The notes: generated by a model from the sequence alone, not told the origin. A DNA stretch of 64,000 nt from Psammoneis japonica (GCA_008632985.1 QPGO01000097.1:1-64000), one strand, 5' to 3'; shown: positions 25,537 through 50,871, counted from the first letter of the stretch. Made by a program: numbers and translations.

Positions 25537-26010
25537 CACTGCCTCCCACAGATGCCATCACGAATTCCAACGCCGCACCTGCGTTTCGGGCCCCTGGCAT
25601 GCCCGATGCTGTTGCTCCTGCCCTTGCTGCCACAGGCACTGTTGACACTGTCATTGGCTTTTGCCAACAACGTCCACAAAGAAATGCCAACAACTCACAC
25701 TTCTTTCATTCTCGCCCCACCGCCTGCCACAGATGCCATCACGAACTCCAATGCCGCACCTGCATTTCGGTCCCCTGGCATGCCCGACACTGTTGCTCCT
25801 GCCCTTGCTGCCACAGGTGCTGTTGATGCTGTCACTGGCTTTTGCCAACAACATCCACAATGAAATGCCAACAACTCGCACTTCTTTCATTCTCACCCGC
25901 CGCCTGCCACAGACACCATCACGAATTCCAACGCCGTGCCTGCATTTCGGTCCCCTGGCATGCCTGACACTGTTGGTCCTGCCCTTGCTGCTGCAGGGGC
26001 TGTTGACACT
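25537..26010 (+). repeat. ~180-bp tandem repeat, about 2.6 copies
   Basis: ccacaga(tg/ca)ccatcacgaa...cccctggcatgcc...gcccttgctgc recurs at ~25541, 25721 and 25901. Confidence 0.85.
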
Positions 26011-27400
26011 GTTGTTGTTTTTGCTTTGGAAGGAGCACAATGGATGACAGCAGACCAGGAAACCCGCGCAACCATGGCCTGCTGATGGACGAGTGTTGGT
26101 GTCATGGCTCTCATGCTTTCCATGTTTGTTCATGGTTTTCTGGTTTTGGTTCAAGGAAACTTGCAGCCCGTCAGGCAAAGACATGGCAATCAATTTTTCA
26201 GATGTTGCAAGCATGAACACCCGTGTTGCACAAGTGTTCAGTGGGCTCTTTGCCTGCCCTTTGCTGGCCTGCAACATCAATGGACATGAACAGTGCCTCT
26301 TGGCTGGCTCTCGAGTGCAGTCTAATCTTTAGAATGTGCAGACACATCATGCAGTTCTCTGTAAATTAGAAACCTGATGTGGAGCAACAATTGGATGGCA
26401 GGCATGCTTTCACAGTTTTGTGATGTTTTTGCAAGTTGCTAAAATGGAGGCAGGTGGCAATGTGCTTTTGGCAAATGTGCACTGTGTTTGTCACCAGACC
26501 TTCAAAACTGGTGCCATGTCGACAGCTGTGCTGCTGCTTTGCATGCCGACACCTTCTCTGCCCGCACTCCATTGGCTGCGTCCTCCTTCACATGTTGCTG
26601 CGGTTCATCTTGACACCGAGTCTCAATCACCTACAGACAGAGGAGGTTCTGCTCAGGAATCATCCTGAGAAAGCCATCGCCACACCTCCCAGATGCTCCT
26701 CTGCCACGCCCATGCCCACGCCCATGCAAGGAGTGTCAACCAGCACATTGCTGCTCGCGGAACCCATGCCTTCATTGTTTCTTTTGTTTTTTGACATGGT
26801 TTGGGAGCTGCACCCCAGACTGTTTGAGAGACGGCTCATCAGTGCCTTCCACGACACGACGACACGAATGAAAATCCAGTTTCTCCAGGAACGCAATTGC
26901 AGGAGTGGACCAATCCCCGAGCTGCGTTTGTGTTTCAGGCACCGAATCCGGTGAACAGAAGCACAAATCTTCCGGATGGCAAATCGGCTGTGTTTGTGTG
27001 ATGACAGCGGGTGTGACGGCACCGGCCAATGCAGGAGGGACTGCCGCATCAGACATGGCAGGCAGGGATGTGTCAGGTGGTGCAGGGGACAAAGAACGGG
27101 AGGTCGTCATGGTTGAGTTGTCAAAACGCGTGATGTTTTGGTGTGTGTGCAGTCTTCCAAAAAGTGTGCTTCCACACCCTTGGTTTTTGGTGGTTGGAGT
27201 TTTAGGGGAGAACATGGTTCAGGATTTTTCTTGCTGCTGTTGGCATTTGTGTGCAAATGCATGAACAAATGTGAGGACATTTGTGTGAAAATGTGATGAA
27301 TGAGACACAAATCTGCCATGCCACCATGACATCACCACATTCTCCCCTGCCACAGGGGTGGGCTTCTTTCAGCCCTTCTGTCTTGAACTAAATGCAAATG

Positions 27401-28917
27401 TGAATGAGACAGGCACATGCACTCTGTGACCAAGTGTGCCCTCTCTGACACACGCACATTGTCAACCAACATGTCAGACATTCAAGAGGCCGTTAGAAGT
27501 CAGTTCCGATCAGCGATTGCGCTGATCGGGTCCCTTCTCGGTTCTCTCACAACCTGTTTTATCAAGTCATCTCAAGCCAGATCTTGCACTGTAATTACAG
27601 TCGTTGTTGTAGCTTGCTCATTGCACTGTCTGTTTCATGACAATGCGCAGAGTGCTGTTGAAAAGAGAGAAAGCTCATTTGTGTTCTCGTGCAGAAAATT
27701 TTGTTAGAAATCAATCGGAACCTCAGTGCAATTGTGCTTGTGAAATTGGCGATTCGGGGCAGCGTTTGTTTGAACTCGAAGCTTGTGTTGCTGCGCTTGA
27801 ATTTGTTGTTGTTTGGTCATTGATTGTTCTCATTGTGTGGATCAATTGGGAACGTGTCATTTCATCCATTGTGTGTGGATTGTTGATTCTTTGATTGCTG
27901 AAGTTGTTCATCGGTCATGTGTCAAGAAGCCTTGGAGAAAGCGTGCATTGAGCATAAAACCAAATTTGTGGACTCTGAATTGCAGGAAGTGAAGCTTGCT
28001 CAAACCTTTGATGATGGAACTAAACTTTCAAAAATGTGCCCCATTTTTGCAGGAGAACATGGAATTGAATCGCTGTTGTGTGTGGAGGACCGTTTCTGGA
28101 AGGCAGCAAGACAGTTGGATTGTGACACCGGAACAGAACTCTTTGATGCTTTTCAGGATTGCCTGCAAGGTGCCATGGAGGTGAAATGGCAGAACATCAC
28201 AGCGGGCATCCAACAGAATCAAAGGATGGCAGCTCGGTTTAATCAAGCCATTTTTCAGCCTGCTGACTGCGTTGTGTGAAACCGACAGCTCGCGATGCGA
28301 TGAAGATGTGCTTGCCTGCTTGCAAGAAACCTTGCTCCATGGAATCTGAAACTCACATTGATTGCACGGAAACCTCATTTCGTTACACTGACCGCTTGCC
28401 TGGAACCGTCCCCGAACTCACAGAGCAGGAGCAGCAGAAAAATGTTGTCTTCTGCACCTTTCCCTCAACCTGGCAGCAGTCCTGCATTCGTGCAGGCAAG
28501 AATCTTGTTGCAGATTCAATGGTGGACATTCAAGCCCACATGAGCAATGAGAAGGTGTTTGCCAATGGTCAAGACAACAAGAAACGCAAGTCCAACAATG
28601 GCGACGGAGGGAACTCCAGCAACAAGAAGGGCAACCGTGACAAGAAGGATGACAAGAGTCAACCCAAGGCTGGTGATCCATGTCCGGTCCCATGGCATCA
28701 TGGAAGACACACATGGGGCCAGTGTTGTGATGATCTAAACAACCCCAACTGTCGTGGACCTCAAAACCATGGCGGTCAAGGTGGAGGTCATGGCAGTGGA
28801 GGTCGAGGCAGAGGTCGCTTCCAAGGAGGCTGTGGTCCTGGCCGTGGTGGCGGTGGACGCTTTGGTGGTCATGGTGACCAAAACCAAGGAGGTCGCGGCA
28901 CCCATTGCAACAATTGC

Positions 28918-28955
<38 letters not shown>

Positions 28956-31900
28956 CGGGGATCAGAGTGACAATGGCAACCAAGGTGGTGGCAGCCAACA
29001 TCATCACAATGACAACAACAATCGTGGTGGCCAAGGTCAGGCCAACGGCTGTGCTGCTCAAGCAGACAATGTGAATGACAACCAGGCTCAAGGTGATGTG
29101 CACCATTTCGACATGATTGGACAAGGCCCTCTATGTCATGGAGGTGTGGTGAGGTTTCAGCCAGATGGGCAGTTTCCTTGGCAGTTCTGAGAAGAAGGAG
29201 CTGAGTGCTCCAGAGCTGAATGCTCCCAATTGCCTGCATGTGAAGCATTTGTTGAAAATGATTGTGCCATGCCTGAAAATGCACCTGAAAGTTTTGTTTT
29301 TGATTGTTTTGAAAATCCCAATGAATTGTCACCCATTGAATTTGAAGACACTGCAGAAAATTGCATGAATGAAGAGGGGGGCACATTCGATCAAGATGCA
29401 TTTGAACACAACATTCCTCTCCCCAAAATGGGTTTGCAAGTTTCGTGTGCCGCATCAATCCCATCAACACTGCTGGTTGCCAAATCGATCCAGCGTCATG
29501 AGTCGAATCGTGTGATGCACGTGCCATTTGATTCTGGTGGCCATCACACTGTGATTTCTTCTCAAGTTTTGCCTCGTGGGGCCGCACCATCTGTTGATGA
29601 GCATGGAGTGCAAGCTTTTCAAACCACAGCAGGTCCTTTCCAGTTGGGTTGCTGGGTGGCTCTGAGTGACATTGTGCCACCCAAATTTGACAAGACCAGA
29701 AGGGTTGAGACGGCTGTGTCGCTCATGTGTTTGATGCTCCGTGTGCGCATGACATTGTTTTGGGTCGAGACTTTTTAGACAAGATTGGACTCCATTTGAA
29801 TTATGATGCAAGAACTCTACATTGGTTGGACCGTGTGATTCCAATGAAGGAGCCTCGTCATTGGTCCAAGTCCTGCAACTGGTGTGTTGCACCAGATCAA
29901 ATGGATGAATTTGATGAAGATTGCACGGACAAATCGGACTACAAGTGTGATGATGGACATGACAGCTGTGTGCTGGATGCCAAGTGTGAAGCAACGGATC
30001 CTGCGGAAGTGGTTCGCAACCTGGATCACCTGACGGAAGAGCAAAAGATGAAGCTGCCAGCAGTGTTGGAAAAACACTCAACCTTGTTTGATGGAACTTT
30101 GGGCCACTGTCCTCATGAACAGGCACACCTGGAGGTGGATGAGAATGCCACACCCCATCACTCAAAACCTTTTCCTGTTGCTCGTGTCAATGAGGAAGCA
30201 TTTGAAAAGGAACTGAAACTTTTGGTGGACCCAGGAGTCTTGCAACCATGTGGACCCACAGAATGGGCAGCCGGCACTTTCATCACTCCAAAGAAGGACG
30301 GCCGAGTGCGATGGGTGTCTGATTTCCGTGAACTGAATGAGGTGCTCAAGCAGAATGTCTGTCCTTTGCTGGTTGTCCAGGATGCACTGCAGCGGAGAGC
30401 GGGGTGCAAATTCTTTGCCAAACTTGATCTCACTGTGTTCTGCTGCAACTTGGAATTGGACGATGAAAGCAAGGAGCTGGCGATGATTGCAACTCCCTGT
30501 GGAAAGTTCCAATGCTGCAGCATGGCCATGGGATTGAAACCAGCTCCAGACATTGCTCAATCTGTCATTGAAAAGATCTCACATGGCTGGCTTGGATGTT
30601 GAAACTTGTGTTGACGACATTGGCACATTTGACATTGACTTTGACTGCCATCTCTCTTGTCTTGACAAGGTGTCACATCATCTTGAGGAGAATGGATTAA
30701 AAGTCAACCCATTGAAATGCAAGTGGTGTGTCCAAGAGACAGATTTCCTGGGGCATCGGCTCACTCCAACTGGCATTGAAGCATGGAAGAAAAAGGTCGA
30801 AGCCATTCTCCGAATGCAGCCTCCACGGAATGCGGTGCAACTTTGTTCCTTTCTTGGTGCAGCAACCTGCTGTTGCAATGGGTGGCCTTGTTGTTCTCAC
30901 TTGCTTGCTCCTTTAACGGAGGCAAGAGCCAGTTCTGTTGGTCAGGTGCATGTTAGAAAGCATTCAAGGAAATGAAGGTGGCAATCACAGCGGAAGCTCT
31001 CATGGCCCATCCTAACCACAACCCACCGTTCCATGTTTGTGGACACTGGTCCAAAAAGCTCTCAGTGGCTCAATGCAGCTGTTCAATGATGGAGAAAGAT
31101 CTCCTGGCAGTCATCATGTGCTTCAAAGAATTTCGCACAATGCTGCTCGGTGCTGATGTTGCTGTTCACACTGACCATAAAAATCTCACCTTTTACACCT
31201 TTGATGCACAGCGCATCCTTTGTTGGCATCTGTTCCTTGAAGATTTTGTGCCTGCTTTTCAATGTGTTGAAGGCAAGGACAGTGTGCTCGCTGATTGTTT
31301 TTCTTGTCTCCCACACATGGATCCGCCTTTGGAGGGGAAGAGCCTTGGGCCCAACAGCAAACGCAAAGGAAAAATCATTCATTTCGAAAAGTTGGACAGC
31401 AGTGAATTGAGCAAGGCCAAGGAAGAAGAAGATTTGGAGTTGGGTGCTTGCAGGTTCAAGTGTTGCCGTGCTCCTGCCAATCCCTCTGATGAGTCTCATG
31501 CCTTTTCTTCTCTGCTCAATGAGCCTGAATTGTTTGGGTGCTTTTTGAATTGTCCAACGTTGGATGAGATGCCAAATCCTGCCGAGATGTTGCAGATACA
31601 ACAGCTCCAGTTTGAGGACCAGCAACTGAATCAGCAGAGACAACAGAACCTGCAGCAATTCGTGGTCAAGATTGTGAACCAGCGTCCTCTCATGTGTTGT
31701 CGTCTGCATTTGAATGATCCGCCTGGAGCATGGGAAATTTGTGTTCCGACTGCATTGTTGAATGACATGCTTGCGTGGCATCATCGTGTGTTGGGTCATT
31801 GTGGAGTTGTTCATCTGTGTGAGAGTGTTCGCACTCACATGTGTCACCCTGCACTGCATCGGCATTGTAATGAGTTTGTGTGCGATGCCTGTCAACGTTT

Positions 31901-33038
31901 CAAACAACTTGGTCTGGGACATGGAGAATTGCCTGAATGCCAAGCACCATTGGCTCCATGGTCGGAAGTGGCAGTTGATCTCATTGGACCATGGAAAACA
32001 CCAACTCAAGATCAAGAGATTGAACCCAGTGCCCTCACTTGCATTGATGCCATTGCTGGCCTGACTGAACTCATGTGCATTGATGACAAAACTTCTCAAC
32101 ACATTGCCAACAAGTTCCGCAACCTTTGGCCAGCTCATTGTCCCAGACCAAATCGATGCATCCATGACAACGGCGGTGAATTCATTGGTTGGGAATTTCA
32201 GATGCCATTAAACCAGGTCAGTGTCGAAGATGCTCCGACAACCTCACGGAATCCTGCAGCCAACTCTGTTTGTGAACGAATGCACCAAACAGCAGCCAAT
32301 GTTTTGCAAACTGTGGTTGCTGCTGACCCACCTTTGAACATTCAACAGGCCAAGCAAATTGTGGATGATGCCCTTGCTGCAGCCTCTTTGGCATTACAAT
32401 GCTCTCATTCAAGGTCCATGGGTGTTTCAAGCAGAGCTTCAGCATTCCAACGAGATGCAATTTTGGACCTCCCTGTTCTTTCCAATCTTGCTGCCATTCA
32501 AGCCAACCGTCAAGTGCTTGTCAACAAAAACCTGCAACAACAGAACGCAAAGCGTCATTCTTGTGATCATTTGGTGGAACAAGATGTGCTGATCAAGTCC
32601 GTGGATCCAGCGAAGCTAGAAGCTCAAGCTCATGGTCCGTTTCAAATTGCACAAGTCCATGCCAACGGGGCAGTTTTGGTGCTGCAAGCACCACACGTCA
32701 TTGAGCGGATCAACATTCATTGCGTGGTGCCACATCAGAGTTGAGGGTTTCTTCCCAATGCCTGGGTTCCCTTCTCCATGCGCATTTGGAGTTTAAATTT
32801 GAGTCAAGTGGCTCCAATGGTGCGTGTGATTCTTGCACCATGGAGGGGAAGAGTGAATGAGATGGGCACATGTGCTCTATGACCGAGTGTGCCCTCTCTG
32901 ATGTGTGCATGTTAACTGATGCATTGGACATTCAAGAGGCCGTTAGAAGTCAGTTCCAATCAGCGATTGCGCTGATTGGGTCCCTTCTTGGTTCTCTCAC
33001 AACCTGTTTTGTCAAGTCATCTCAAGCTGGATCTTGCA
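27401..33038 (+). mobile_element. Full-length, mutationally decayed Ty3/Gypsy LTR retrotransposon
   Basis: LTRs 27401-27588 and 32854-33038 (TG...CA), PPT ggaggggaagag before the 3' LTR, 5-bp TSD aaatg/gaatg. Gag knuckle CPVPWHHGRHTWGQC; protease FDSG; RT PKKDGRVRWVSDFRELN and CVDD; RNase H EKDLLA and HTDHKNL; integrase HHCC, VDLIGP, DNGGEF, CERMH and GPF. Order is PR-RT-RH-INT. Confidence 0.95.
28918..28956 (+). repeat. (AAC)13 microsatellite encoding poly-Asn in Gypsy gag
   Basis: Read directly from the sequence. Confidence 0.95.
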
Positions 33039-33365
33039 GAATGATCGTGGCTGCTGTGCGGCACACGTGCGTGTGTGTTTTGTCAGGTGCTGCCATCTGC
33101 TGTCCAACCTTGTGCGCTGTGCTGTAGTTTGACAAGACAAATGACCCTTTCCACCCGACCGTTGGGTCATTTTTTCTAGCTGTTTGAAAAATTTGAACGC
33201 ACTTGCATGGGCAAGAGCATGAAAGAGCAGTGAGCACACCCATCTCTGCTCTGCCCATAAAGCAAAAGCCAGCAGCAGAGGAAGTGCGCTGACACTGTGA
33301 AAAACTCTCATCAACTTTTAGGTTTCCATGAGAGAATGAGAGGTGTGTGAGCCCTCCATTCTCTC

Positions 33366-33620
33366 ATGGGTGTTTCTGCTTCTCAACTTTTGTCAGGAGA
33401 TCTTCTGGAAGATTTGGAAGATTCAATGGCGTGTTTTGAATTCTTGGATCCTCTGACTGCGTCAGCGCTGCAAAATGCATTTGACAGTGTCAATTTTGGA
33501 AGCAATCCATGGGGTGTGTTTTCAGCAATGGCTGACAATTGCCTTTGTTCCTGGGAAGTGGGTGGTGTGGAGAACGTCACACAAATGGACGTGGCACGCA
33601 TGAGTCGGATCGACCAAGAC
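33366..33620 (+). pseudogene. Possible Plavaka-like transposase fragment
   Basis: NAFDSVNFGSNPWGVFSAM...LCSWEVG resembles the pre-catalytic segment of Plavaka-type transposases; judged from recall only. Confidence 0.35.
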
Positions 33621-36600
33621 ACAACTCAACGCCAGACTGACAGACCAAAAATGTGCAAGACAAACCATCCGCCGACACATCACCACAACTGCTTTCTGTT
33701 CCTGTCATGCCTGCCAGTGGGAACCGACAAGACAATGTTGTTAGATGGGTCACCTTTTGATTTTACCAGGACAGCAAACACACAATGTTTGACAGACGAA
33801 AGTCTTGCCTCCTCTTTGTAAAACATGTCCATCAACAAACATCCACCTGCTGCAACTCATTCCTCAATCTTGACCACACTTTCTGGGCATGAACATGCAA
33901 ATGTTGTGGACAGGACTCCCTTGTCTCCTGGGGCAAGACAACAGTCAGGCACTTCTGGATCTGGCATTGGCAGTTCAGACCCAGTTTCTTCTTGTGCAAA
34001 TGTGCATCAATGCAAGAGTGATGGTTGGGGTTGTCCAGCCATGCCCCACACTCCAGATGCGGGAAGGTTGCCTCAAAGTCCTCCTTTAATTTTGACTCAT
34101 GTTCCACACAACCAACAAAAGTCCCAATGTTGAAAGGGACAAAGAATGCACCGTTGTCTTTCATTGCCCTGCCTGGATCCAGTGTGGTTTTCTGGAAGAA
34201 GCCTTTGCTAAATTGGCCACTGAACCGACCCTTTTGCAGCCAAAAGAAATCCATGTTGATTTCCAAGAAGTCCCCCCAAACTTTTTCAGTGGCTCATCCA
34301 CAAAGTTTGGGCTGCACACATTGCAGTTTAGGTGTCATCCTGCATGTCCGTCACTGAGAGAGGCAGTGCAGAACTTGCATGCATTGTTCCCTGTGTGGTT
34401 GCAATCACTCAACAGTTGCTGACAAGCAAGTGGCCTTGCTGTGTTGGACCGCAGCTTGGCGTTTGTGAAAACAGATGATCACTCTCATCAAGAAGGATGT
34501 CATGGTGTGGCACACTGTCAACATCTTTGGTCTGTGTCATGCACAGAAAAAGCACCTTGACCTGAGTCATGGATGGGGAAACATCGTTCCGAGTTGACGG
34601 ATCATCGTTTTCTTCATGCTCAATTTGATCTGCCAAATCAACTGGAGTGCAATCATCTTGCACCAACGTTCGAAAAGACTCAGCACCAGTTGATTCCAGT
34701 GCATCTTCTTCAAAATCAACATTCGGGTGTGGATCATCATCCTGGCCAGGCAGTGCAGGATGACACGTGTCTGTTGGATCCTCCTTTTTCATGTCTTGAT
34801 CTGGCAGATTCTCCTTTTCAGTGTCCTCAACTTGCTCTTGAGAATTGACAGGACTGTCACAATCTTTTCCTGCAAACCTCAGAGACTCTGCAGTCATTGA
34901 TGATGCACCTGTGGACTTGTCCACTGGTGTTGGAATTTTTTCCCAAAATCAAGTTCCACATTGTTTGATGCTTTGGACTGCATCGGGACCAATGAGGGTA
35001 AAGAGATGTTGGTTCTCAACACAATGTTCTTTTGTCAAGTCTCGGATTCTGTTCTCATGGCTGTCACAGGTGATGCACTCCTTGCAGTTGTCATGCAGTG
35101 TGCGGCTGTTGTGTGCATGTCCACAATTGCACATTGTTCACATGTCAATCGCACCACAGTCGTGGACGCGCACAAAGGACAGAATGATCACACAGAGTTG
35201 ATTGGAAGTCGAAAATTGCAAATGCGATTGACAGACAGATGTTGACATCTTGTGTGTCAATGGCAATCGCATCCAGACAATCTGTTGTCACAAACATGTT
35301 CTCCAAAAGGCCTTTTGTCTGCACCAATTTGCGAGCATTTCCTGGACCCTTTTTTCTCTGGCAAAGTGGTGGAAATCGGGAGTGCTGGTGTTTTCATTAA
35401 TCCAGTGGAGAAGTGATGTGATGTCAGTTGTCATCTTGTCCATTCTTTGGTTCAAAACCAAGCATCGGAGTTTGTTTTGGGAACTGTCCAATTTGCAGTC
35501 ATCCTTGTCTGCAGCTTCAGTTTGTCTCCTCTTGCCAGAAGTGTTGCTGGCAGATGCTTTGGTTGCATGGCATTGCTTGTCACCCTGTGGTGAAGCAGAA
35601 ACATCACTGTCACACACGTTGTCACCGATTTTGTCATTGTTTGCTGCAGCACAGCATGCTGCAATGAAATCATGTCCACTTGGGTTCACACAATGAGGGT
35701 GACTCCAATGTCACCAGCAGCTGTTCCAAAGGACTCCCACTGCTCGAGTGTGGGTGGGCCTGAGCAATTCTAAAAACCGTTGATGGCCAACACTGTGCAA
35801 TTTGGCAGCATTTTGGCACTCTGTGCATGAGGCATTTATGTGGAAATTACGTGCGTACAATTGACAGGGGAAGCGAGCGTGGAGAAGAGACGACGCGAGC
35901 GAAGCACGAGCGAAGAGACCGACAATGATGCAAGAGCCGCAGAGAGACGCAAAGACAGCAATCCAACGATGTTGCAAGAGGGCACAAAAGAGAGAAAAGA
36001 TCTGTTTGAGTCAGTGCCATGTCTTCAATAAAAAGAACAAAGCAAGACAACATTGGCATGCACAAAAACTTGCACAGAGAAGCACGGCACCAGCGCCTGA
36101 AAAATGACCACATCTGCGGTGACATGGAACACACAAGGAGGTGAGAACACACTTTTCTACAAATGCAAAGCAACAACGAGCAAATGACCAATGTAAACTC
36201 ACCAGTGGGGTCAAAACTCGGGGTGCCTGGATCGTCAACGGCGGGCAGGGAGGACAGATGGAAGAGAGGCAGCTGGCTCCACGGAGCAGGACGACAAAAG
36301 CAGGCGGTAGATCGGCGTGAGCAATGGTGGAAAGTCGGCGCTTGGGATCGAGTGACTGGTCCGGTCCATGCAAATCGTGGCAGTAGCTTGGAGAACGGAG
36401 GCAGCGCCATGGTGGCACGGCACAGACCGGGGAGAGAAGAAGTGCCGCGGCGGAACGGCATGGAACGGTGACGGAGCCAAAAATGGTGACGGCGATGGCG
36501 CAGACCCGTGGACTTAGACATCCCCATATTCGAGTCCTGTGCATCAAGACACGGGACAAGGAGGTTCAAGGTGAGCGCCATTGCGAACGAGAACTGGGAA

Positions 36601-39600
36601 AAAGACGCACGATTCCACGAGAATCAGAACTCACCACATTTTGAGTCATTCTGACCCATTCCAGAGCCAGGGCTCACTCACATGGCACGACCCAATGGAT
36701 CATAACACTGTCAAGCAGGGCAGGGGTCGGGAGGCGGTGTCTTACCGGTCAAATCGGCCAAAAGCGCCATTGTCGGAGGGAGCGGTGGTTGTCGATCGGC
36801 CGCTCGGAAAAATTATGAGCCATCAACCCGACCGCGCACCGTTCGGAGTCGCACAGAATTTCTCGGTACAAAATGTACACAAGTGTACGTCAGTATAAAA
36901 CACGTGTAGAAGGGGTGTAAGTAGAAACTTACTGTCTCTCTGTTGACTACGAGGAGTCTGCCGTTAAACTATACCAGTATGTATAATTCTACGTGGTAGA
37001 TTTGAATCAATCCCACCAACGTTTTTGAATTTCGATCGTAATAACGGCTTTAGGTGCTGAGATGAATATAATATATAAGTTTGAATTAAATATCATATGC
37101 AATATTAATAATTTTGAATGATTGCGCGACTGCCAGTCGGCACGAAAAACCGTCGCCAATAAGTAAACCTGCAGTACAGAAGTACTCTTTTGCAATACTT
37201 TGGTACTTCAGTCTTGCACATGAAAGCGCTCCCTAAGTAGTTAACGGTCAAATTGTATATATAAAATCCTCACAGCGGGAGACCCTATATACGCTCCCGT
37301 GTGCACTCAACGCGCCTCGGTTACGACCTTCTCGTTGGGTTGCACAATGGCGAGAACGACCCACAGCTTGTCGTGTGGCCTTCTCGTCGGGCTGAAGCCC
37401 TCCTCGTCGTCCACCCTCCTCGCTGGGGTCGTTCTCGCCATTGTGCAACCCGCCTGGTCGGTCTCCACCTCGTTGCTTGGACCCTTCTCGTCGGGTTCGG
37501 CGGGGCCGAACCCTCCTCGTCGGGCTCCACAAGTGCACAGGGCGCGTACCTACAGCACTCCATGGCACAGCAGAAACAAACAAGCGTGGCATTGCTGGGG
37601 GAATTGCGCAGTTCCTCCGAGTGCTTTGTTCCAATGTAGAAGAAGTGGCTGAAGCCAGTCTGGCAGCTTGCCATGACAGCCAGATGAGCACAACCGCGCA
37701 CGCCAAGGTCATCGCGGATGTTGTCTGCAGGTGGACAAGCAAGAGAAAGTCAGAGATTTCTTGTGACAGAAGCAGGGAAGACCACAGTCTCCTGCATTGT
37801 GTCGCCATTGGATCTCAGCAAGACAGACTCCCATGGGACTGGACAGCCATCATCAAGGAAGAATGCTTCTGTGTGGTGATGGGACAGATCACCCTTCCTT
37901 AGAGCTTGTGTGCCCAAACATTCATGAATGAACTGATTGCAGTTGCAATCAACTGCATGTGCAAAAATGCCAACCCTCGCCTGGAGGTCTCTCATGCCAC
38001 ACTTCTTCATGCAGTGATTGCCAGCCTCAGCACAACTGCCAGCCAACAATTTGACAGACCAAAGGTTGCCAACCTTGTCCATCCCAAACAAGCAAAGAGC
38101 TGCGGTTTCATTGCATGTGAACCAACAGCAATCCTCTTTGTCTTTGTGTTCATCAGCTCTGTCACCAAGGCTCATGTTCTTGAGCTGAATCGAGCATGGC
38201 TCGCTTTTAGAAACTTCGGCACCGAGTTTGTCACGTGCGGGTTGGCCAAACTGATGAGTGTGCTCCTTGTTGTTGCAGGAAGGTGGGGGATCAAAATGAT
38301 CAACGCACAACTCATCCTGGCAGAGCTGCGTGCAGTCAAAGGCATCAGCTGACATGGCCTTCACTTTGGGAATGAAATCTTCATCATCTTTGTCCATTGC
38401 AAAAATGTCAAAGCCAGACAAAGGAGATGGCATTGCTTTGCGGTTGTCTCTGACAACAAAATTCTGTCTGCAGCAACCAAAGTCAACACAACTGTTGTGA
38501 ACAGCCCCCCCCGGGGTGACTCTAATTGCAGTTCTTGTCAACTGTGCTGTGCTCCAAAACAAAATGAGTGAGTGTTCCAAAATGAATTTTGAGCCCAGAG
38601 AAATGTTTTTTCTTGAACAGCTGGTCATTGGAATGGAGTGTGGTTTGTCCAGCTGCAATCTTGGTGACACTGGGAGGGACTGCAATCAACTTGCAAGAAT
38701 GCCACATTGGATTGGGGAGTGACCTTGATGACTCAAACAAATGTGTCAAAACATGGAGGTTCACCATGAGGCAGAAATCCAAAGGGGAGTGACAGAGAAT
38801 GAGCTCTTGGTCGTTCATGTTGTCATCAACATCGCCATCTTCATCTGCACCATTGTAAAATGCATGAACACGAGGAGCAACCTTGGCAATTTGTTGGAGG
38901 CTGGGTGTGGGACACTGACATTCTGGTGGGAAACGAGCATGCCAGTCATCCACAGGAACAACAAACTGGTTGTTCATTCAATGAAGGCCGGTTGGTCGGT
39001 GGCTGGAAACATTGTCATCTGTGGTCTCATTGTCTTTGTCATCATCTGGGTCACTGATGAGTTGAGCAAGGGGGGGGGGGGGGGACTGCAAATTGGGATG
39101 GCCAGAGGGATCACAGAGATGGCAGCGGGAAGGAGGTTCCACGGCCTTCTTGGTTGTGGAGGGTGCAAGTGTGCCTGGGTGCAAACAACAACACAAATGC
39201 AAAGAATTTGTAGAGGAAAATTCAAAGAACAAATGTTTGACTGAATGAGGGTAAAAAACTGACCTTTGGCGGATCCAGATCCATCATCTTCTGACCCTTC
39301 CTTGGCACACCAAACCACGTCAAGGAGACAAACAATTTTTTCTGTTGAGGCTTGAGGTGCCTGCACGTTAGATCACAAACATGGGAGTGGGCTGTTGCCA
39401 GGTTCTTCATTTTTGGACGGTTGAGATCCTTGCAAGCATGCTTGAAGGCACAGCGCATCTGCTCTTCCACCTCTGAACCGCGGCAGGAGGCATTTCTTTT
39501 GTCCTTTGGCCTTGTTGGACATCTGATCCCGGATGGCACCTGGACCTTTCCTCAACATGTTCTTGACAATGTTGCCAGATTTTACTTTGACGTTGGCATT

Positions 39601-41699
39601 GACAGTTTGCAGGAGAATTGTCAGAGGTCATCACAAATGTCTTTGGTTTGGAGCATTGAGAGAAAACAAGTCTTGACCAATGTCAGGTGTCACCAAAGTT
39701 TGGTGCAACATGAGGGAGGAATGGAGCATTCACTGTTGATGCTGCAATGCTCTGAGTCTGCACGAAAAAAGTCAGCCTTGGCAATGAAGCTGCTCTTCTC
39801 AAGAAAGGTTGAGTGGTCACAGAGTTTTTTGGAATTTGCAAACCCATGCATGCAATCCACCATGGCAGTGAGGTTCTTGCCATGGCAGGAAAGATTGCTG
39901 GAGGACTCAATGACTTTTTGGCATTGAAGAGCAAAGCAACCAGTGCACTTGCCGACCTTTCTTTCCAGCTTGCAGGTCCAACCGCGGCTCTTGATGCAGT
40001 GGAACCCATCTTTGCACCCAAGAGATTGACCTGTGATGTCATCAACTGCTGTGCATTGCTTGAAAAATGGCACAGTCCATTCTTGGGGTTGTGCCACAAA
40101 CAAGGCAATGCCAGAAAGTCAGGGGAGGGGTTCCACTGGACACTGGAAAGATGTTTCTTCCTTGCACATTGCATTTCTGTCATCCTCCTGAAGTGTTGTT
40201 TGGCAATGCAATGTTTGCCATCACCACTTGTGAAAACAATTGTGTTGTCGTCCATTTCGATGACTTGCAAATGTGGAAAACAAATGTCAGAAAAGCCAAA
40301 CAGAAGCATGTTGAACAACAACAGAAAAATGTGGCACACAGCATTTTTTGTTAGAACTGGTTTTTCTGGCAGTCCCAAGGTTGGTTTCGGCAGCGCCAGC
40401 GGCGCCATTGTCAATGTCATCATCATTGGAAAGGCAAGCACCATGGTCAAACAACTCTTCAGAGAACTCATCATTTGCAAAGGGGAGAACATGCAGCAAG
40501 TCCGCACTGTGGCCAGAATTGATGGAACAGGTGGAATCATCATCATCGGAAGATTCCAAGGCAGCAGCTCTGGCAAAACTGCAGGAATCACAGGATGATT
40601 CTTCCTCCTTTTGGCCATCAACGTCTGCACATGCAAGAGTGCGCCCCAGGGAGCGACCAAGGCAAGTGCATGCTTTCTCCAAAGATGACAACGGAATGCC
40701 AGCAGCAGCAACAGCACTTGAGTTGTGGTGCAAAGGAGAGAGTCAAGAATGCTGCCATTGCCAACTGAAAAACAATCATTGCTGTCATCAGCGGAATCAA
40801 CTGGCTTGTCTTGGGCAGGATGGACTGGAGGAGGCAAAACAACAGGCCTCATCATTGCAACAAATGGGTGCCATGGGGCTGCACGCAATCTACGCAGATT
40901 TTGTCATGTCAATTTTGGCAAAAACAAAGAGAGCAGAAGTTGACAGGGTGAAAAAGATGCAGAAAGATTGCAGAATGGACAAAATGATTGCAGCCCAAGT
41001 CATTTGTCTCAATGCACATTGAGCAATTGTGAGTGCATCACCACCAATGAAGGGGCTGGCATGTGTTGTGCATGATGAGATGTGAGTGACTTGGATGTGA
41101 CAGTTGTGATCAGGTGAGAAAAAACATCACTGAGTGCAAACAAACAAGCAAGGGCAAAATGGACATGGGCAGCTGCATGTGCCACAAACAGGGGCATGTC
41201 CGGCATGTCAATTGTTGCATTTTTTAAGACGGAAGAGCAAAAACAACACGAGCATGTCTGGGGGCAGTGTTCAGGTGAACAATGAATGTGGGCATGTGCA
41301 AATGAATGAGAAAGGTGGGGTGAAAATAAAGGACAGCGCAAACAAACAAGTGAGGGGGGCACGGAACACATGAAGATGTGAGCCCAACAAACAATGGCAG
41401 GGGATGATGATTTGTGATTCATGTGGCTTCACACGCCTCTCTGATGACCCAAGGACAACCAAGGTTGAGTCCACTGCCTCCCTTGCCATTGCAAGGGTCA
41501 GTGCAACTCCAGCTGCAGTGCAAGTCACAATCATTGGAATGACCATACCAAGGATGAACAATCACGTCTCCTCATCTGGGGGGAGGAACACTGAAAGACC
41601 AAACAGGTCTTCGTCAATGGCCCAAGCTCAGGGACTTGGAGCCAAGAGCCACCCATCATGCCAGCTGACTCACTGTCATGTCCACAACCCCCAACTGTG

Positions 41700-44669
41700 G
41701 AGAGTTTCAAGCAGCAGTGCACCCGCCCCACCACACGTGTGGACAGGATGTTGCTGCTGCCATCCATGATGACAAACCAGGCAAGCACATTTGATCCAAC
41801 ACTGCTGCATTGCGTTGCCAAGGTCTCAGTTGCTTGTTGCATCTTCACAGTGGCAGAGGCAATTGGGGCCCACTTCACCAAGTCAAGCAGCACCCAGCAC
41901 ACCGATTGCTGAATGGCTGCAAGTGCCAAGGTGCTCCAATCACCATTGCCAGTGCACCATGGATGCATGCTGAGCCAGACACCAGTGTCTCCAGGGGCCC
42001 ACACAAATCTGCTTACGAGCATGTCGAGTTTCCATGCAATGACATGGCAGATGTGGGTGAGAAAGGATTTTGGGTTGTGGTTCCCCACTGCAAGGTCCGA
42101 CGCACACCAGGACCAAGACTCAGCCCCATTGGCATCGTCGTGCAACACGGCTGCCACCCACATCCCATGGTCAACCACACATGCTGTGGGACTGACACCT
42201 CCACTCAACCAAATGCAGCCATGGAGGCCATGAAATTTGGGCGTGTGCTTGACCGGCTCTTGTGCCAAATTTTGCTTGCAGATCCACATCAAGGCAAGGT
42301 CTACCTCATGAAGACAGACCTTGCCAATGGCTGCCACCACATGCAGTTGAACCCCAAATGGGCACCTTCTCTTGGAGTGGTTTTCCCAAGCCAGCCTGGA
42401 GAACCGCCATCAGTTGCCATCCCGACAGGACTTCCCATGGGTTGGGCCAACTCCCCACCCTTGTTTTGCACTGCCAAGGAGACAGTTGCAGATCTTGCCA
42501 ACATTGACTTGGTCCGCAATGTACAAGCACCACCTCACCCTCTTGAGCCCCACCTCAATGGCTGACCAGCCAAACATCAACCACCCCCCGTCATGTCCAC
42601 CAATGCCATGCCCATTCCAACCCAACCTGACCCACATCTCCGGCCACAACGTTGCCATTGCCTTCAACACATTGACATCTGTGTTGATGATTTTGTTGGT
42701 GTGGCACAGGGCTCCAATCATGCCCGCTGCAATGTCCACCGGGTGATTTTGCACATCCCAGATGATGTCTTCCACCCACTCGATTCCCAAGACCAGGCCA
42801 CCCACAAGGAGCCCATCTCCATTGCCAGGAAGCTCTGCCAGGGTGACACCACATGGTCCATGCAGAAAGAAGTCCTCAGTTGGATCACAGACATGTGCTC
42901 TGTGACCCTCCGGCTCACACCACGTTGGCATGCACGCCTTCACACCATGCTGCACCAAGATGTTCCCCCTGCTGGAAAACATGCCACTTTCAGGCAAACT
43001 TTGCTCCCTTGGCATTGCCCTTCCCGGTTCCCAAGGTTTGTTCTCTGAGCTTCAAGAAAATCTCTGCCACACCACCCCAGACTCCCGAGTCTGCATTTTG
43101 GCCAACTCACACTCAGCCCTCAATGACTTTCAGGATCTCGAATCCACCATCGACTCCCAATCCATTCGCATCCAAGAGTCAGTGCCCCCAAAGCCAACTC
43201 TCACTGGCTGTCATGACACTGCAGGTCATGGTGCAGGAGGAGTCCTGCTCCCCACTGACACCACTGCACCATGCAAAGCCACTCTCCACCTCACCCAGCA
43301 AATCCGTTTCTACAAGAAACAGGATCCGCCTCCCAACCGTGTAAAGCCCATCCCCATTGCTGTCCTGCAGTGGATCATGACCACGGCAGTGCTCAGCAAT
43401 GACCCCTGAACACAGGCCATCACTGACACATGATTGCCACAGCATTTTTCTTTCTGTTGCAACCAGGCAAGTGCACCGCAACACCATCAGACACCACTCC
43501 CTTTCATTTCACTGAAGTCCACCTGGCATCCAGTGGTGCCTGCATTGACATCATGCAAGCACCCCTTGCCCACCTGGACATGGCCACCTTTGCCATCCTT
43601 GTCTTCACTGCTCAAAAGAATGGAGTGCACGGCAAAGTCATTGGCCTTGGTTTGTCAGGACACCCCAACTTGTGCCCCGTCCAAGCCTTCATCCACCAAG
43701 TCCAACACTTGCACTCCAGTGGTGCATTGCCTGACACAACTCTTGGTGTCTGTTTGCAAAGTGACACCTGGCGGCACGTCCCTCGGCCAACATCACCAGC
43801 ATGCTTTGCAATGCTGTCACTGCTCTTGGTCCAGCAAATCTCGGCTTCAACACCTGAGATGTCACTGCTTGGTGTCTCCATGCTGCCAGTGCAATGGCCC
43901 TTCTTTGTGCCCATGTTGACATCAACCTCATCTGGCTCTCAGGCCACTGGCAATCTGACAAAATGTTGTGCCATCTGCATCTCCAAGGAGAACCCATCAT
44001 GCACAACTTTGCTCATGACATGCTTGCCGGTGGCAACTTTGTTCTCCACCCTGATGACGATGCTCCCTCAAAATCCTCAAGATCCTCAGGACAACTGATC
44101 ACCACAGCCTTCCAGCCTCAGCCCACCCACCCTCCCAAGAGTGCATGGCACTGTGGGTGTGGTGCTGGAAGGCCCTGCCATTCCAGCTTGGGTTTTTTGG
44201 GAATGAGGCTTGTGCATCTGCCAGCAAAGCCATTCCAGTCCATCATTGGAAGGTCTCCTGGACAGTCTGGTTTATCCAGGAAAAGACACAGGAGAAGAGA
44301 AACAAGATGGGTGGTGCGAGCCACCAACCTCATGCAGTTTGACCAGACAAATGACCCTTTCTGACCATTGGGTCATTTTTTCTGGCCGTTGAAAATTTTT
44401 AACGCACTTGCATGGAAAAAGCAACGGTTGCTTTTTTGAGCTCTCCACTGTCCAAAGAGCAACAAAGAGCAATGACTGTCGCAAGACAGTTTTCAACACT
44501 CCCACCTCTCCCACCCTCTGGCCCTGCCATTCCAGCTTGGGTTTTTGGGAATGAGGCTTGTGTGTCTGCCAGCAAAGCCATTCCAGTCCATCATCAGAAG
44601 GTCTCCCAGACAGTCTGGTTCATCTAGAAAGAGATGCAGGAGAAGAAACGAGATGGGTGGTGCAAGCCG
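41700..44669 (+). mobile_element. Decayed DIRS/Ngaro-type tyrosine-recombinase retrotransposon (RT, partial RNase H, YR, 3' split direct repeats)
   Basis: RT motifs MKTDLANG, LPMGWANSPPLFC and ICVDDF; RNase H start GCHDTAGHGAGG. YR motifs AFFFLLQPGKC, FTAQKNG, LCPV, AMALL and SGHWQSDKMLCHLH. A 150-bp direct repeat lies at 44171-44321 and 44520-44669. Confidence 0.85.
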
Positions 44670-45079
44670 CATGCTGTGCTGCATCCTTGTGTTCAGTTTT
44701 GGCCAAAGTTGGCCACACATCCGGGTTTTCCTTGGCACATGTTCAGCACACATTCTGCACAGTTGGCCAACATCAACTCTCAAGCTCCAAAGGCTCGTTT
44801 CAGATTTTGTGGCCGGTTTGAGTGAATTTTTTGTTTTTCGACGTTTGTCATGCAGCATTTCTCTTTGAAAATGTCCACAATTGTGTTCCATTTTATTCAT
44901 TGTGTTGCACCCCAGCACTTGCCACTGCACATTTGCATCAAAGCACATGTGCAGTGCCACAGGGCAGATTGCTTCACCAAGCTCAATGATTCAAATGAAA
45001 TCCCATTCAACTGGACTCAAGGAGAACAACAGAATGAGCATCTTGATGTGGGCAAACAAAATTTTTTTGTTTTCTCCAC

Positions 45080-46150
45080 CCCACAATGAATGCAGTTTTC
45101 TTGACCTGCCACATCTGTTGTTGCAGTGGATGTCTGTCACAATTTTCGTGGGACACCTCTTCCTGGCACAGATGCCCTCCACGCTTGTTCTTGTGGCACT
45201 CACAGATTTCTCATCCCCATGATGAATGCTGGTTTCTGAACCACACAACATTGCACCATTGAGACAGACATCTGCCATTGTTTGTGGTGGACATTGAACA
45301 TCATGTGGTGGACAACACCCCACCATGCTCATTGTGACAGATGATGTTCATTCCTTTTCATTCCTGTTCAAAGGGCTCCTGACCATGCAACAAGTGCTGG
45401 TTTCTCAACCCCCCCAACATTGTTGTTTCAGATGTCCATCAAAAACATTTCATGACAAATGTGTTTGCCATGCCCACAATGACATTCTCAAACCTTTCCC
45501 CCTCCCCCCTCAGAGATTTCTCAGCCCCACTGTGAACGCTTCTCAATCCCACAACATTGCTGTGTGGTGGACTTCCATCACAACTCATGGATGGACATTC
45601 TTGTTGTGGACTTTTCATGATGGACATCCATCATGCCTGTGATGGACACTCAAACCACTCAACTCAAAAAGGGTTTCTTGACCTCACAATGAATGCAGCT
45701 TTCTTGACCCCCCACAGCCAATGACATCTGGTGTCCATCATGAATTTTGATGGACATTTTGTGACAGACATTCCAAGCTCTTTGTCTCCATTCAAAGGTT
45801 TTCATCCCACAAGGAGTGCAGGTTTGTGAGCCCCAAAACATTGCTGCAGCAGATGGCCATCACAACCCATGGGGCAAACACTTCATCACTGACATTTTGT
45901 GTGAAGGATGTCCATCATGCTCTGTGATGGATGTTCAAACCTTTTTTTCATTCCTGGGTGCCAGCTCAAAAGTTTCTCAACTCTGCAATGAATGCGGGTC
46001 TCTTGACCCCCACAATGTCCATGCAATGGTTCTTGATGTCCATCATGATTTGAGACAGACATTTCATTGCAGACATCCACCATGCTTGTGGCAGACACTC
46101 AAACCTTCTTTTTTGTCACACTGCCAAAAGGCTTCCCAACCCCACAATGA
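45080..46150. repeat. Degenerate tandem repeat array
   Basis: caatgaatgc.g...tcttgacc recurs at ~45085, 45687 and 45986; ccatcatgc...tgtgatgga...tcaaacc recurs at ~45628, 45912 and 46077. Confidence 0.6.
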
Positions 46151-49100
46151 TCACAGGTTTCATGATCCTAAAATGCCATTGTGAAAGATGTGTTTGCTGC
46201 AACTCGTGGAAAAAAAATTTTTGATGGACATCAATCTTGCTCATGACAAGTTGTGTTCAATGCTTTTTCATTGCTGCTCAAGGGTTTCTTGATTCTGCAA
46301 CAAACAACAAAAGCAGCAGCGCCACCTTTGGTTCCTTTTTTGCCCTTGCCTTTGCTGGTGGCAGCTGGGTGGCATTTTTGCAGTCCAAGCAGCCCAAAAA
46401 CAGCATTTTTTGTGTCAGGACTGCACATCTTGTTGTGCTGGCTGTGACTGCTCCTGAACCAGTTAACAAGATCATGGCAGCACTTGAGGCCTTGTTTGGA
46501 CCACCCTTCATGTGCACTCCCCTTGTCCTTGCCAGTTGCCCATCTTTGTCCACCTGCATCTGCCTCTCCTGCAATCTTGAATTTGCTTTCCTCCATCACA
46601 TCCTTGACAACAATGTTTTTGGGCATGACCTCAGTCCTCATGGCCACTTTTTGGCCTGGAATGCTCTCAGCCAGCATTTTCCCATGTGGATCTCACTGCC
46701 CTGGTCTCACAGCAATTGATCTTGTTGAACACCAGAGCTGCACTGCTTTGTTCCTTTGTGAGTTTCTGCTTAATCCGCAAGGCAAAAGCTGCAAAGAAAG
46801 GGACCAATGATGTTGTGTGCTGCCCCCACTCACCTGGACAAAGCCACCACCACATGTCATGAACAAAGTGTGGAGTTGTTGGTGTCCATTTGTCCACCCT
46901 TGTTTGGCTTTTTCACCCAGCATGTTGCTGGGGAAAAATGCAAGACAATGCACAAGAACAACCACAAATTTTGCAGGAAATGAAAGTGACAATTGCAGTG
47001 ACAGGGCCACCATCAATTGGTGTTTTCTCACCCACTCTGGTGTTTCCCTCATGCAGACACTCAGAGTGCCACGCATCTTGTCCCTCAGTGCCTTTGTTGC
47101 CCACCACCCAAATGCAAAAGATCTCATTTTGTCTTGCCACAGATTCTGTCACAGCCCACAACCAGTTGAGCTCATTGGGGTTTTGTCAGTTTCTCAAACT
47201 TTGTCAAGAAGGACAAAGTTGGCAAATGTGCTGTTGTGCATCACACTGCTGCAGAACATTGGCTCCTCTGTGCAGCACAGAGTCTGCTTTGCTGGGCAAA
47301 GGTGGTGGCCAGTCAACTCAGCAATGCTGTTGCTCACAGTCTGCTCTGCATGGGCTGCAGCCAGGTCATTCTCGAAAAGCAATGTGGGCTCACTTCTTGG
47401 CTGTCTCACAGGTTGCTGGTGCACTCTCAGTCTGTGCACAGTCATTGGCTCTTTCTCTGCTTGCTTGCTTTGGTTCTTTGAGGGTGCTGCTGGAACAACA
47501 ACAAAAGCCTTTGCACAGCTGGCCTTGTCCAGATCCTCTTTGCCAGCAGACTTTCTGATGAGGAGGCACCAGGCAACATGCTTGGAGCTGCTGTTTTGAG
47601 CATCAATGTACAGTGCTTCTCTGTGTGTGACATTGAGACCCCCACTTTTTGTTCTGTCGCCCAGTGCCCCAACTTGTCAAGACAGTGCCAACAGAGCCAG
47701 CATCAGATGAAACTTTGGGGTGCATTGTCAACTGGCAGAGGGGTTGGCAGTGGGCAGTCATCAGATTTGGCTCCTTGCAGTGTGGCTCCTGCTGTCAAAA
47801 AGCTGTCCACAGAGAAGCTCCTTTCCAACTTGACAAATCTGCTTCCTTTGACCCTGTGTGCACATTTCATGTTCCAGAGGTGCTGCAGCAACAAGCTGCA
47901 AACAAGACTGGCAGTCAATGTGACACTCATGCCTGCAGTTCCAGAGAGGTCAAAAGAGCACCATTGCATTGGACCACTTTTCAGCCCCATTTTGTGACTC
48001 ATTGAGTTGACTTGCTTGATCATTCTTTGTCAAAACTTGGTCATTTCTCAGTCACAAGGAGTCTGCTCCTGCACTTCTGAAAGGGGTCCAATCAATCACA
48101 ACAGGTGGGGGCAGCCCAGGTCTGCTGAGTGCAGTTCAATTGCTTTCCATCTGTTTTCACAGACTTGTCAAGGTCAAGTGGTTCCTTGGACACAGCACAT
48201 TGCCTGCCAAAGTTGCTTGGAGAAGAGAGCTCTAAAAAAAAGCCCCGTCATTTGAAAAGGTTGCAAAGCAGCTCATTTGGTCAGGGCTTTGCAAACTGGC
48301 TTTTTGAACACTTTTCATCTTGATCCTGCAATGGATTGTTGTGATGTGCTGCAAGCTGTTAGGACAAAATGCCAGCAATGAAATCTGTCAACCATGTTGT
48401 TGCCATCATGTCTTGTTTTTGGCGTGCCTGACTTGACAACATCAGATTGGTTGTGAGCATTGCAAAACACCAACAAGATGAGTTCCCTTGCAAGGAACTC
48501 CTGACAACTCAAACAAGGCTTTGAAAGCATTCAATTGCCATGAGGGGGTCTTCTTCAAGTTCATCTCAGGATCATTTGGGAGCAGCAAGCAAGGTCCTGG
48601 TGCTTTGCCACTGGCAGGAGTGGCTGCCAGCCTTGCAGCATGCCATCACTTCTGGGGCAAATCATTGACAGAGTTTTCATCAGCAGTGTCATCTGAAACC
48701 TTCAAGCTGATTTCAACCAAATTTTGTTGCTGCTTGGCTGCAGAGCTGGGGTCTTCTTGATTGCCCAACAAATGGCAGAATTCATCCCTGACACCTTGGA
48801 GATCCATTTGCTCAAAGGAATGCCTCTGCTGACCTGCTGTTTTGACCTTCTGCTCATTTCTTCTGGCCAGCTTTTGTCACCTGGTCTTTGTCTTTGACCC
48901 AAGCTTCTGACTTGACTTGGATGGAATTGAGTGCATTTTGCAGGTTTGTCTCAGGTGTGAACCCATCCACAACTTGCTTCTTTCCAGGAAGGAAATGTTG
49001 GGGCTGGTTCCTTGCCATTGACATCTCAGTTGGAAACATCTCATTCATTCCATGATGTTGGGCAACAATTTTGTCTGCAGCAAGTGCCCCCACCTTGTTG

Positions 49101-50776: not shown

Positions 50777-50870
<94 letters not shown>
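50777..50870. repeat. (CA)n microsatellite abutting the gap
   Basis: Read directly from the sequence. Confidence 0.95.

Positions 50871-50871
<1 letters not shown>

Follow-up and report, generated by a model that had tools for sequence, protein, structure and literature searches.

Organisation and composition of the locus

The 64,000-nucleotide stretch of DNA analysed here (QPGO01000097.1:1-64000, assembly GCA_008632985.1, Psammoneis japonica), referred to as the window, is over ~40 kb a retrotransposon graveyard lying between ordinary diatom-looking genes. The graveyard holds a Ty3/Gypsy element with both long terminal repeats (LTRs), a DIRS-like tyrosine-recombinase element and older debris that can no longer be recognised. 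Its DNA is nearly devoid of the dinucleotide TA, and the proteins it once encoded have lost their conserved tyrosines; our subject is the mutational process behind both losses. The blocks concerned are listed below (o/e, ratio of observed to expected dinucleotide frequency).

23700..36750, no strand: transposon block part 1, TA-poor, CpG-poor and TG+CA-rich (TA o/e 0.06-0.11 per 2 kb)
36800..37300, no strand: TA-rich multi-copy island within the block, not hypermutated (6-13 TA per 100 bp)
37350..61990, no strand: TA-poor block part 2, from the TA profile
4600..7400, no strand: second, smaller TA-poor and CpG-poor block (TA o/e 0.15-0.33, CG 0.40-0.48)

The gene-bearing DNA (20,905 bp; 1-4, 8.3-23.3 and 62.1-64 kb) has o/e values of 0.66 for TA, 1.00 for CG, 1.11 for CA and 1.13 for TG. 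The corresponding values for the block DNA (40,294 bp; 4.6-7.4 kb and 23.7-62 kb, minus the 0.5-kb island) are 0.06 for TA (166 TA in total), 0.31 for CG, 1.78 for CA and 1.73 for TG, while the remaining 12 dinucleotides are unremarkable (0.87-1.24). The balance between block and flanks is close, with a loss of 0.60 for TA and 0.69 for CG (1.29 together) against a gain of 1.27 for TG and CA. The edges of the block at ~23.7 kb and ~62.0 kb are sharp, the transition taking place within ~100 bp; at ~23.65-23.7 kb the TA count drops from 2-11 to 0-2 per 100 bp. Depletion of TA and of CG is correlated across 1-kb windows (rho 0.88 for all windows, 0.68 in the 38 TA-poor windows). Both are most extreme at 46-52 kb (TA o/e 0.01-0.03, CG 0.04-0.06), the oldest stretch. 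The island at 36800-37300 has normal CpG and a depth of 1600-2400 in a public read set, as opposed to ~60-70 for single-copy DNA, and is probably a young insertion untouched by the process.

With TAA and TAG lost, TGA alone is left as a stop codon, and the 38 kb between 24000 and 62000 therefore contain 65 frames that run for at least 150 aa without a stop, counting both strands; some exceed 400 aa and lie antisense to real genes. A Pfam search of stop-free frames, 147 on the plus strand and 139 mostly on the minus strand, recovered only the Gypsy domains and a pyrophosphatase exon outside the block, plus three matches below the cut-off. Pfam gave no match on either strand beyond 44.4 kb in the block, and none in the 4600-7400 block. 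Atlas places two flanking genes nearest to clusters of Bacillariophyta, at scores of 0.96 and 0.98, and exons are long; the host is hence probably a diatom.

Two degraded retroelements

The 27.4-33.0 kb region is a Ty3/Gypsy LTR retrotransposon, with reverse transcriptase (RT), RNase H and integrase on one strand and direct LTRs flanking them. The 41.7-44.1 kb region is a tyrosine-recombinase retroelement, in which RT is followed on the same strand by a tyrosine recombinase that replaces the DDE integrase. Their features are as follows (ORF, open reading frame).

27400..27588, plus strand: 5' LTR of the Gypsy element, 85% identical to 32853-33038
29709..30930, plus strand: Gypsy RT in two frames, frameshift near 30590 (Pfam RVT_1, 25.6 and 25.5 bits; alignment to 60 relatives)
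30607..30618, plus strand: RT active-site box CVDD, TGT GTT GAC GAC (relatives YIDD 54, YLDD 2, FIDD 4 of 60)
30957..32741, plus strand: RNase H-integrase ORF, 595 aa (RT_RNaseH 52.6 bits, Integrase_H2C2 18.3 bits)
31167..31178, plus strand: RNase H motif HTDH, CAC ACT GAC CAT (first position in relatives Y 33, H 12, F 12, W 2, L 1 of 60)
32853..33038, plus strand: 3' LTR of the Gypsy element, paired with 27400-27588
41708..43277, plus strand: DIRS-like RT and start of RNase H, one in-frame TGA, frameshift near 42993 (tblastn and alignment with 16 relatives)
42680..42691, plus strand: RT box CVDD, TGT GTT GAT GAT (relatives FVDD 9, YVDD 4, YIDD 2 of 15)
43284..44075, plus strand: remains of a tyrosine recombinase, spread over three frames (tblastn matches from 6 of the 100 aligned relatives; alignment with all 100)
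43969..43974, plus strand: TGC CAT (Cys-His) at the Arg-Tyr of the relatives (RY 89, WY 4, HY 3, CY 2 of 98)

The 595-aa Gypsy ORF has 169 longer relatives, the best of which (expectation value, E, 2.8e-222; 56% identity) carries a complete protease-RT-RNase H-integrase set, and the window copy is collinear in alignment with relatives of this organisation. No Pfam match to the rve domain was found in this ORF. Compared to the intact relative P0001, domain scores are severely reduced (RVT_1 85.3 bits versus 25.6/25.5 in the window; RT_RNaseH 104.9 versus 52.6). In addition to point changes, at the protein level the element lacks the stretch at 30980-31040 that holds the RNase H YTDASD motif in relatives.

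Pfam returned no match for the window copy of the DIRS-like element. Its RT, with the TGA read as X, nevertheless finds 16 relatives, the best at 50% identity (E 5e-114), and several of those that are named come from the diatoms Cyclostephanos tholiformis and Thalassiosira oceanica. RT and recombinase are found in a single protein in relatives P0124, P0126, P0128 and P0136, whose C-terminal domain matches 43284-44075, and the recombinase domain alone has 2159 shorter relatives. This domain too gave no Pfam match, and a 45-relative profile found no PDB sequence at E<=10. A predicted model based on the relatives (45 sequences; predicted local distance difference test score 81) resembles Cre (E 8e-6) as well as Xer, Flp and Tn1549 integrase, with 31 fold matches at E<=0.001. 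Among the 45 relatives R177, K227, R334, W335 and Y343 show no variation, and R312 is shared by at least 90%. The model hence predicts that the domain of the relatives has a Cre/integrase fold with the tyrosine-recombinase catalytic set, Y343 being by its position the presumed nucleophile. The window reads Q, K, H, H, W and H at R177, K227, R312, R334, W335 and Y343 respectively, and the surrounding motifs have changed from LLRPGE to LLQPGK, CLRAAG to CLHAAS, GRW to GHW and RY to CH. The context of the TGC CAT is SGHWQSDKMLCHLH. The only repeat seen downstream is a direct one of 150 bp (44171-44322 and 44520-44668); the element may belong to the DIRS, Ngaro or PAT-like subgroup.

Conserved tyrosines are lost

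The initial annotation had read CVDD at 30607 and at 42680, HTDH in the RNase H, and TGC CAT at 43969-43974, all of which are present in the sequence, and had taken them as invariant tyrosines turned into Cys or His. We determined the fate of conserved residues by aligning the window frames to relatives of the Gypsy element (60), the DIRS-like RT (16) and the recombinase (100), a column being considered conserved at >=60% agreement. No tyrosine was retained at any of the 32 conserved Tyr columns, which now read Cys (17), His (12) or Phe (3); the codons are TGY or CAY in 29 cases and TTT in 3. At 90% consensus, Tyr is kept at 0 of 21 columns. The Gypsy element accounts for 23 Tyr columns. By comparison, 636 of 921 columns that are neither Tyr nor Arg are kept (Fisher p=1.7e-16 versus Tyr), including 34 of 49 Phe and 18 of 26 Trp columns. 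The tyrosine loss described in the initial annotation is confirmed. Arginine is also heavily affected, with 22 of 89 conserved columns kept and the remainder now His (22), Cys (17), Gln (16), Trp (3) or other (9). The same pipeline applied to the own DNA of five intact relatives retained 109 of 121 Tyr and 177 of 206 Arg columns.

Seventeen window Cys derive from Tyr and 17 from Arg, and 12 His derive from Tyr and 22 from Arg; about half of the Cys and His gained come from Arg via CpG decay. The near-absence of tyrosine from the RNase H-integrase ORF, noted earlier for a 590-aa frame, is borne out in the 595-aa frame, which contains a single Tyr (0.2%) next to 31 Cys and 32 His. In contrast, Tyr makes up 2.6-4.3% of the first 30 of 120 listed Gypsy relatives, with a median of 3.6% across the 120. 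Among 256 relatives, no protein with a hypermutated appearance was found; the lowest Tyr content (1.1%) belongs to naturally Tyr-poor recombinases.

The individual active sites differ in what they reveal. The YxDD column of the Gypsy RT is Y in 56, F in 4 and C in none of 60 relatives, and the recombinase column is Tyr in all 98 relatives with a residue (2 of 100 are gapped), with RY in 89 of 98, in line with the proposed Arg-Tyr origin of the Cys-His. Both sites are strong evidence of Tyr loss. The DIRS-like YxDD column is F in 9, Y in 6 and C in none of 15 relatives (1 of 16 gapped), and thus was not invariant; loss of a Tyr is nevertheless plausible, since Y is what the two nearest relatives carry and a change from F to C needs a transversion. 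The RNase H column is likewise variable. Although the two closest relatives have Y, H occurs naturally in 12 of 60, as had been anticipated, and HTDH taken alone proves nothing. At the four tyrosine columns, relatives share the window residue only in the case of HTDH, with Cys absent from the YxDD column in 60 and 15 relatives and Tyr universal in 98 recombinases. WY, HY or CY replaces RY in 9 of 98 recombinase relatives, which suggests that copies in other organisms have undergone CpG decay while still being called as genes.

Context and direction of the changes

Among the 384 changed columns, a single base substitution suffices for 281, and 103 require several steps. The one-base changes comprise 38 TA>TG, 28 TA>CA, 68 CG>CA and 26 CG>TG, together with 21 other transitions, 90 transversions and 10 ambiguous cases. 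The TA- and CG-context classes thus account for 160 of 181 inferred single-step transitions in the window, as opposed to 20 of 94 (20 context versus 74 other transitions) in the five intact relatives, which show just 1-4 TA-context changes each. The 66 TA-context changes of the window split into 38 to TG and 28 to CA. The predicted side effects on other residues are present in modest numbers (I>M 4, I>T 2, V>A 5, L>S 4, L>P 6). Furthermore, I>V occurs nine times in the Gypsy element, eight of which belong to the TA>TG class with a T preceding the codon.

The Tyr codons, the context of the transitions and the dinucleotide balance all point the same way. They support the direction put forward in the initial annotation, with TA ancestral and TG/CA derived. 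The family is not TA-poor by nature, as follows from the median Tyr content of the Gypsy relatives given above and from a TA o/e of 0.46-1.08 (median 0.73) at 80 related loci; these are distant loci obtained from metagenome contigs by an aligned scan, located via conserved peptides, which biases them towards intact copies, and serve for composition and controls only. A search of metagenome contigs for near copies of the window ORF yielded 119 pattern matches, none of which was confirmed.

Repeat pairs date the changes to after integration

The LTRs of one element are identical at integration. Those of the Gypsy element now differ by 17 events, all at pyrimidine-purine (Y-R) steps and with zero other substitutions: nine TG-versus-CA doubles, three TA versus TG/CA and five CG versus TG/CA. 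The changes hence took place in chromosomal DNA after integration, and in each copy independently. Across eight repeat pairs within the block, the LTR pair included, we count 26 doubles, 33 CG-type and 7 TA-type differences, next to 20 other transitions and 33 transversions, such that the context classes are mixed with ordinary divergence. A tandem duplication at 25512-26012 (180-bp period, 87% identical) shows 7 TG-versus-CA doubles, 9 CG-type and 16 other changes between its copies.

Agreement with a public read set

Contigs of the public read set, at a depth of ~60-70, agree with the window over 40258-43499 except for 6 letters and over 43470-44026 throughout. At a depth of ~1000-3000 the Gypsy region is multi-copy, which suggests roughly 15-50 copies of the family, and 213 of 240 inter-copy differences are transitions. 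At 36057/8, 36423/4 and 36701/2 the window has CA where other copies have TG. The read set thus lends limited support to the window sequence being real rather than an artefact.

Proposed mechanism and alternatives

A chromosomal A:T to G:C hypermutation aimed at TpA has, as far as we found, been described once before. For mutation-accumulation lines of the chlorarachniophyte (a rhizarian) Bigelowiella natans, a preprint reports 302 new single-nucleotide mutations, 231 of them located in two viral inserts; 230 of these 231 were A>G or T>C, every one on TpA. The genome is also reported to hold 124 TpA-poor, CpA+TpG-rich clusters, with RT and DDE domains enriched in TpA-poor coding sequences (bioRxiv 10.64898/2026.01.13.699255). 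For that species an ADAT2-like adenine deaminase is a proposal only (Mettrop et al. 2026, bioRxiv 10.64898/2026.01.13.699255). The block DNA shows the end state of a TpA-erasing process that is restricted to transposon DNA, runs beside CpG decay and is probably of the same kind.

We propose that after integration the block DNA underwent two context-specific transition processes, both ending in TG/CA. The first would be the usual CpG decay, expected if the transposons carry 5-methylcytosine, which would have taken out the catalytic arginines. The second would be of a much rarer kind, a near-saturating conversion of TpA to TpG or CpA, i.e. A:T to G:C at TpA on either strand. As every Tyr codon is TAY, TpA loss converts conserved Tyr to Cys (TGY) or His (CAY), and this second process would account for the loss of both the Gypsy YxDD tyrosine and the presumed recombinase nucleophile. 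We hold the TpA-erasing process and its direction with high confidence. The process may further represent a targeted, enzyme-driven defence of the B. natans kind, most likely one that deaminates adenine to inosine at 5'-TpA-3' where the DNA is silenced. With a probability of roughly 0.6, this account, targeted defence included, is the best explanation overall; adenine deamination is our leading guess for the chemistry, at about even odds.

The competing account that survives best retains a DNA-level, transposon-restricted TpA process and replaces its chemistry, invoking modified thymine (5-hydroxymethyl- or 5-formyl-uracil, which can pair with G) or, in silenced chromatin, a bias in mismatch or base-excision repair. 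5-Formyluracil mispairs with G, and there are protists in which T at TpA is replaced. TpA is self-complementary, and T>C and A>G on opposite strands yield the same outcome; TG and CA products are about equal (1.73 and 1.78), and the tracking of CpG loss by TA loss (rho 0.88) suggests a target marked by its chromatin or modification state. The sequence itself gives this chemistry no preference over adenine deamination, and the sole experimental study of such a signature proposes an ADAT2-like adenine deaminase, equally without proof (bioRxiv 10.64898/2026.01.13.699255). We regard the alternative chemistry as unlikely.

Far less probable is A-to-I editing of the retroelement RNA before reverse transcription, by an ADAR-like enzyme with a 5' U preference. 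The TpA context does fit the 5' neighbour preference of ADAR, a point also made by the B. natans authors. LTRs copied from one RNA nonetheless differ at 17 Y-R steps, mostly as CA versus TG, and this change in DNA after integration sets RNA editing aside. Both strands are, moreover, about equally affected, the 46-52 kb stretch is affected even more while containing no recognisable coding sequence, and CpG decay proceeds in parallel. ADARs are not known outside animals.

It is more improbable still that ordinary CpG decay acted on methylated transposons of families that were TA-poor from the start, with no TpA-specific mutation. The block is CpG-depleted and TG/CA-enriched like any methylated repeat, and diatom transposons are methylated at CpG (PMC9998398). 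The loss of CpG (0.69), however, covers only about half of the TG/CA gain (1.27), Tyr codons can neither arise nor vanish via CpG, yet 29 of 32 are now TGY/CAY, and the DNA of the 80 related elements spans the TA o/e range given above. Provided that the alignments are right, the Tyr columns refute this account. Some long-read base callers make systematic miscalls at modified bases and the platform of the read set is unrecorded, but an artefact in which modified transposon bases were misread and the true DNA still carries TA and CG is just as remote, given that k-mer assembly at ~60-70-fold depth shows 0-6 differences over 0.6-3.2 kb of the DIRS-like region, that the elements also carry frameshifts, an RNase H active-site deletion and in-frame stops, and that paralogous copies differ as CA versus TG at the same sites.

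Several observations weigh against the preferred account of a targeted TpA process, or limit how far it can be taken. The relatives are 36-58% identical to the window, such that some of the non-context change is ordinary divergence. The LTR comparison alone cannot separate ancestral TA from ancestral CG; the codons alone give the direction. Strand coherence is weak, although the 5' LTR has CA in 8 of 9 double differences: runs tests were null both for the order of TG and CA over blocks (z -0.5 to 1.4) and for the inferred mutations (z -1.1 and 0.5). A regional trend is seen, the 5' part of the Gypsy element being mostly TG, its 3' part mostly CA and the DIRS-like element 54 CA versus 20 TG, possibly biased by detection via amino-acid change. 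The TA-rich multi-copy island is spared inside the block, which implies that repetition is insufficient as a trigger or that the process is slow. One window cannot separate slow accumulation from bursts, and hypermutation in the sense of a rate is deduced from the contrast with flanking DNA. Finally, the read set may be the assembly's own data, which limits the support it offers.

Relation to known systems

The resemblance to B. natans extends to A:T>G:C change at TpA on either strand, to confinement to mobile or foreign DNA with adjacent genes normal, and to a long-term footprint of TpA-poor, CpA+TpG-rich clusters with RT and DDE domains. Clear differences exist. The genes of the window look diatom (stramenopile), and the targets are LTR and tyrosine-recombinase retrotransposons instead of viral inserts in a rhizarian. 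A B. natans giant-virus insert is given a TA o/e of 0.45, whereas the window approaches saturation with 0.06 over 40 kb. Strong CpG decay occurs alongside in the window; the rate, on the other hand, was measured in B. natans only. The words CpG, retrotransposon, LTR, Gypsy and tyrosine do not occur in the main text of the preprint.

Like fungal repeat-induced point mutation (RIP), the process consists of DNA-level, context-specific transitions that wreck transposon copies after integration and leave a dinucleotide footprint. RIP converts CpA to TpA and so creates TpA and stops, whereas in the window TpA is nearly absent, CpA is enriched and TAA/TAG vanish. No parallel to the duplication dependence of RIP is shown in the window, where the multi-copy TA-rich island is spared. 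The window shares with 5-methylcytosine decay the drop in CG o/e (0.31 in the block versus 1.00 outside) and the conversion of 58 of 89 conserved Arg columns to His, Cys, Gln or Trp (CAN or TGN codons). Removal of TpA, by contrast, is impossible by CpG decay, which explains only about half of the TG/CA gain. Clustered transitions, a neighbour preference and the inactivation of retroelements also characterise ADAR/APOBEC editing in animals; that editing affects RNA or reverse-transcription intermediates, before integration and on one strand, while the LTRs of the window diverged after integration and on both strands.

Our literature search found no report on TpA loss in diatom transposons, subscription journals lying outside its coverage. 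Many diatoms carry a RID-related DNMT4 of unknown function, and their transposons are methylated (PMC9998398). The end state seen in a probable diatom extends the TpA process to a second major and ecologically weighty eukaryotic lineage, and adds retrotransposons to viral inserts as its targets. The link with CpG decay hints that the silencing state that goes with cytosine methylation also marks the targets. We tentatively consider, while thinking it somewhat less likely than its opposite, that diatoms and B. natans alike possess a dedicated defence. It would mark mobile DNA that has been silenced and use an enzyme to turn A into G at each TpA of either strand, in cooperation with cytosine methylation. 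If true, this would be the mirror image of fungal RIP, erasing Tyr codons and TAA/TAG stops, and the joint action with cytosine methylation would drive each of the four pyrimidine-purine steps towards TG/CA. Its presence in both stramenopiles and rhizarians, if borne out, would make it an ancient, widespread and hitherto overlooked DNA-editing defence of eukaryotes.

There are practical consequences. The tyrosine argument sets the direction from a single genome, with copies and outgroups unneeded. With almost no TAA/TAG, hypermutated DNA presents long false ORFs in all six frames and is a trap for gene finders, while its proteins escape Pfam, as do the DIRS-like element and the 44-62 kb region. 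An index of TA o/e versus TG+CA o/e would locate such regions in any genome.

Additional observations

The three matches below the Pfam cut-off are UVB_sens_prot, TM7S3_TM198 and IRS, all of them weak. The UVB_sens_prot match (27408-27704; 23.9 bits versus a cut-off of 28.3) overlaps the 5' LTR and is probably spurious. The 4600-7400 block has a strong purine skew, with a GC skew of 0.28 and an AT skew of 0.27 at 6-8 kb. A 203-N assembly gap (50574-50776) lies inside the oldest part of the main block.

The 166 surviving TA of the block DNA favour TTA and TAA (T before in 69, A after in 76) with only one ATAT, whereas TA flanks in normal DNA show no such preference (192 of 929 each). T-TA-A may be a poor target, or else these TA have newly arisen. 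The entire 38-kb TA-poor block is bracketed by an inverted repeat pair (23342-23468 and 61925-62051, 90% identical), whose copies differ by three TA/TG, one TA/CA, one other transition and two transversions. The pair may represent a small repeat that happens to occur twice, or the ends of a larger unit.

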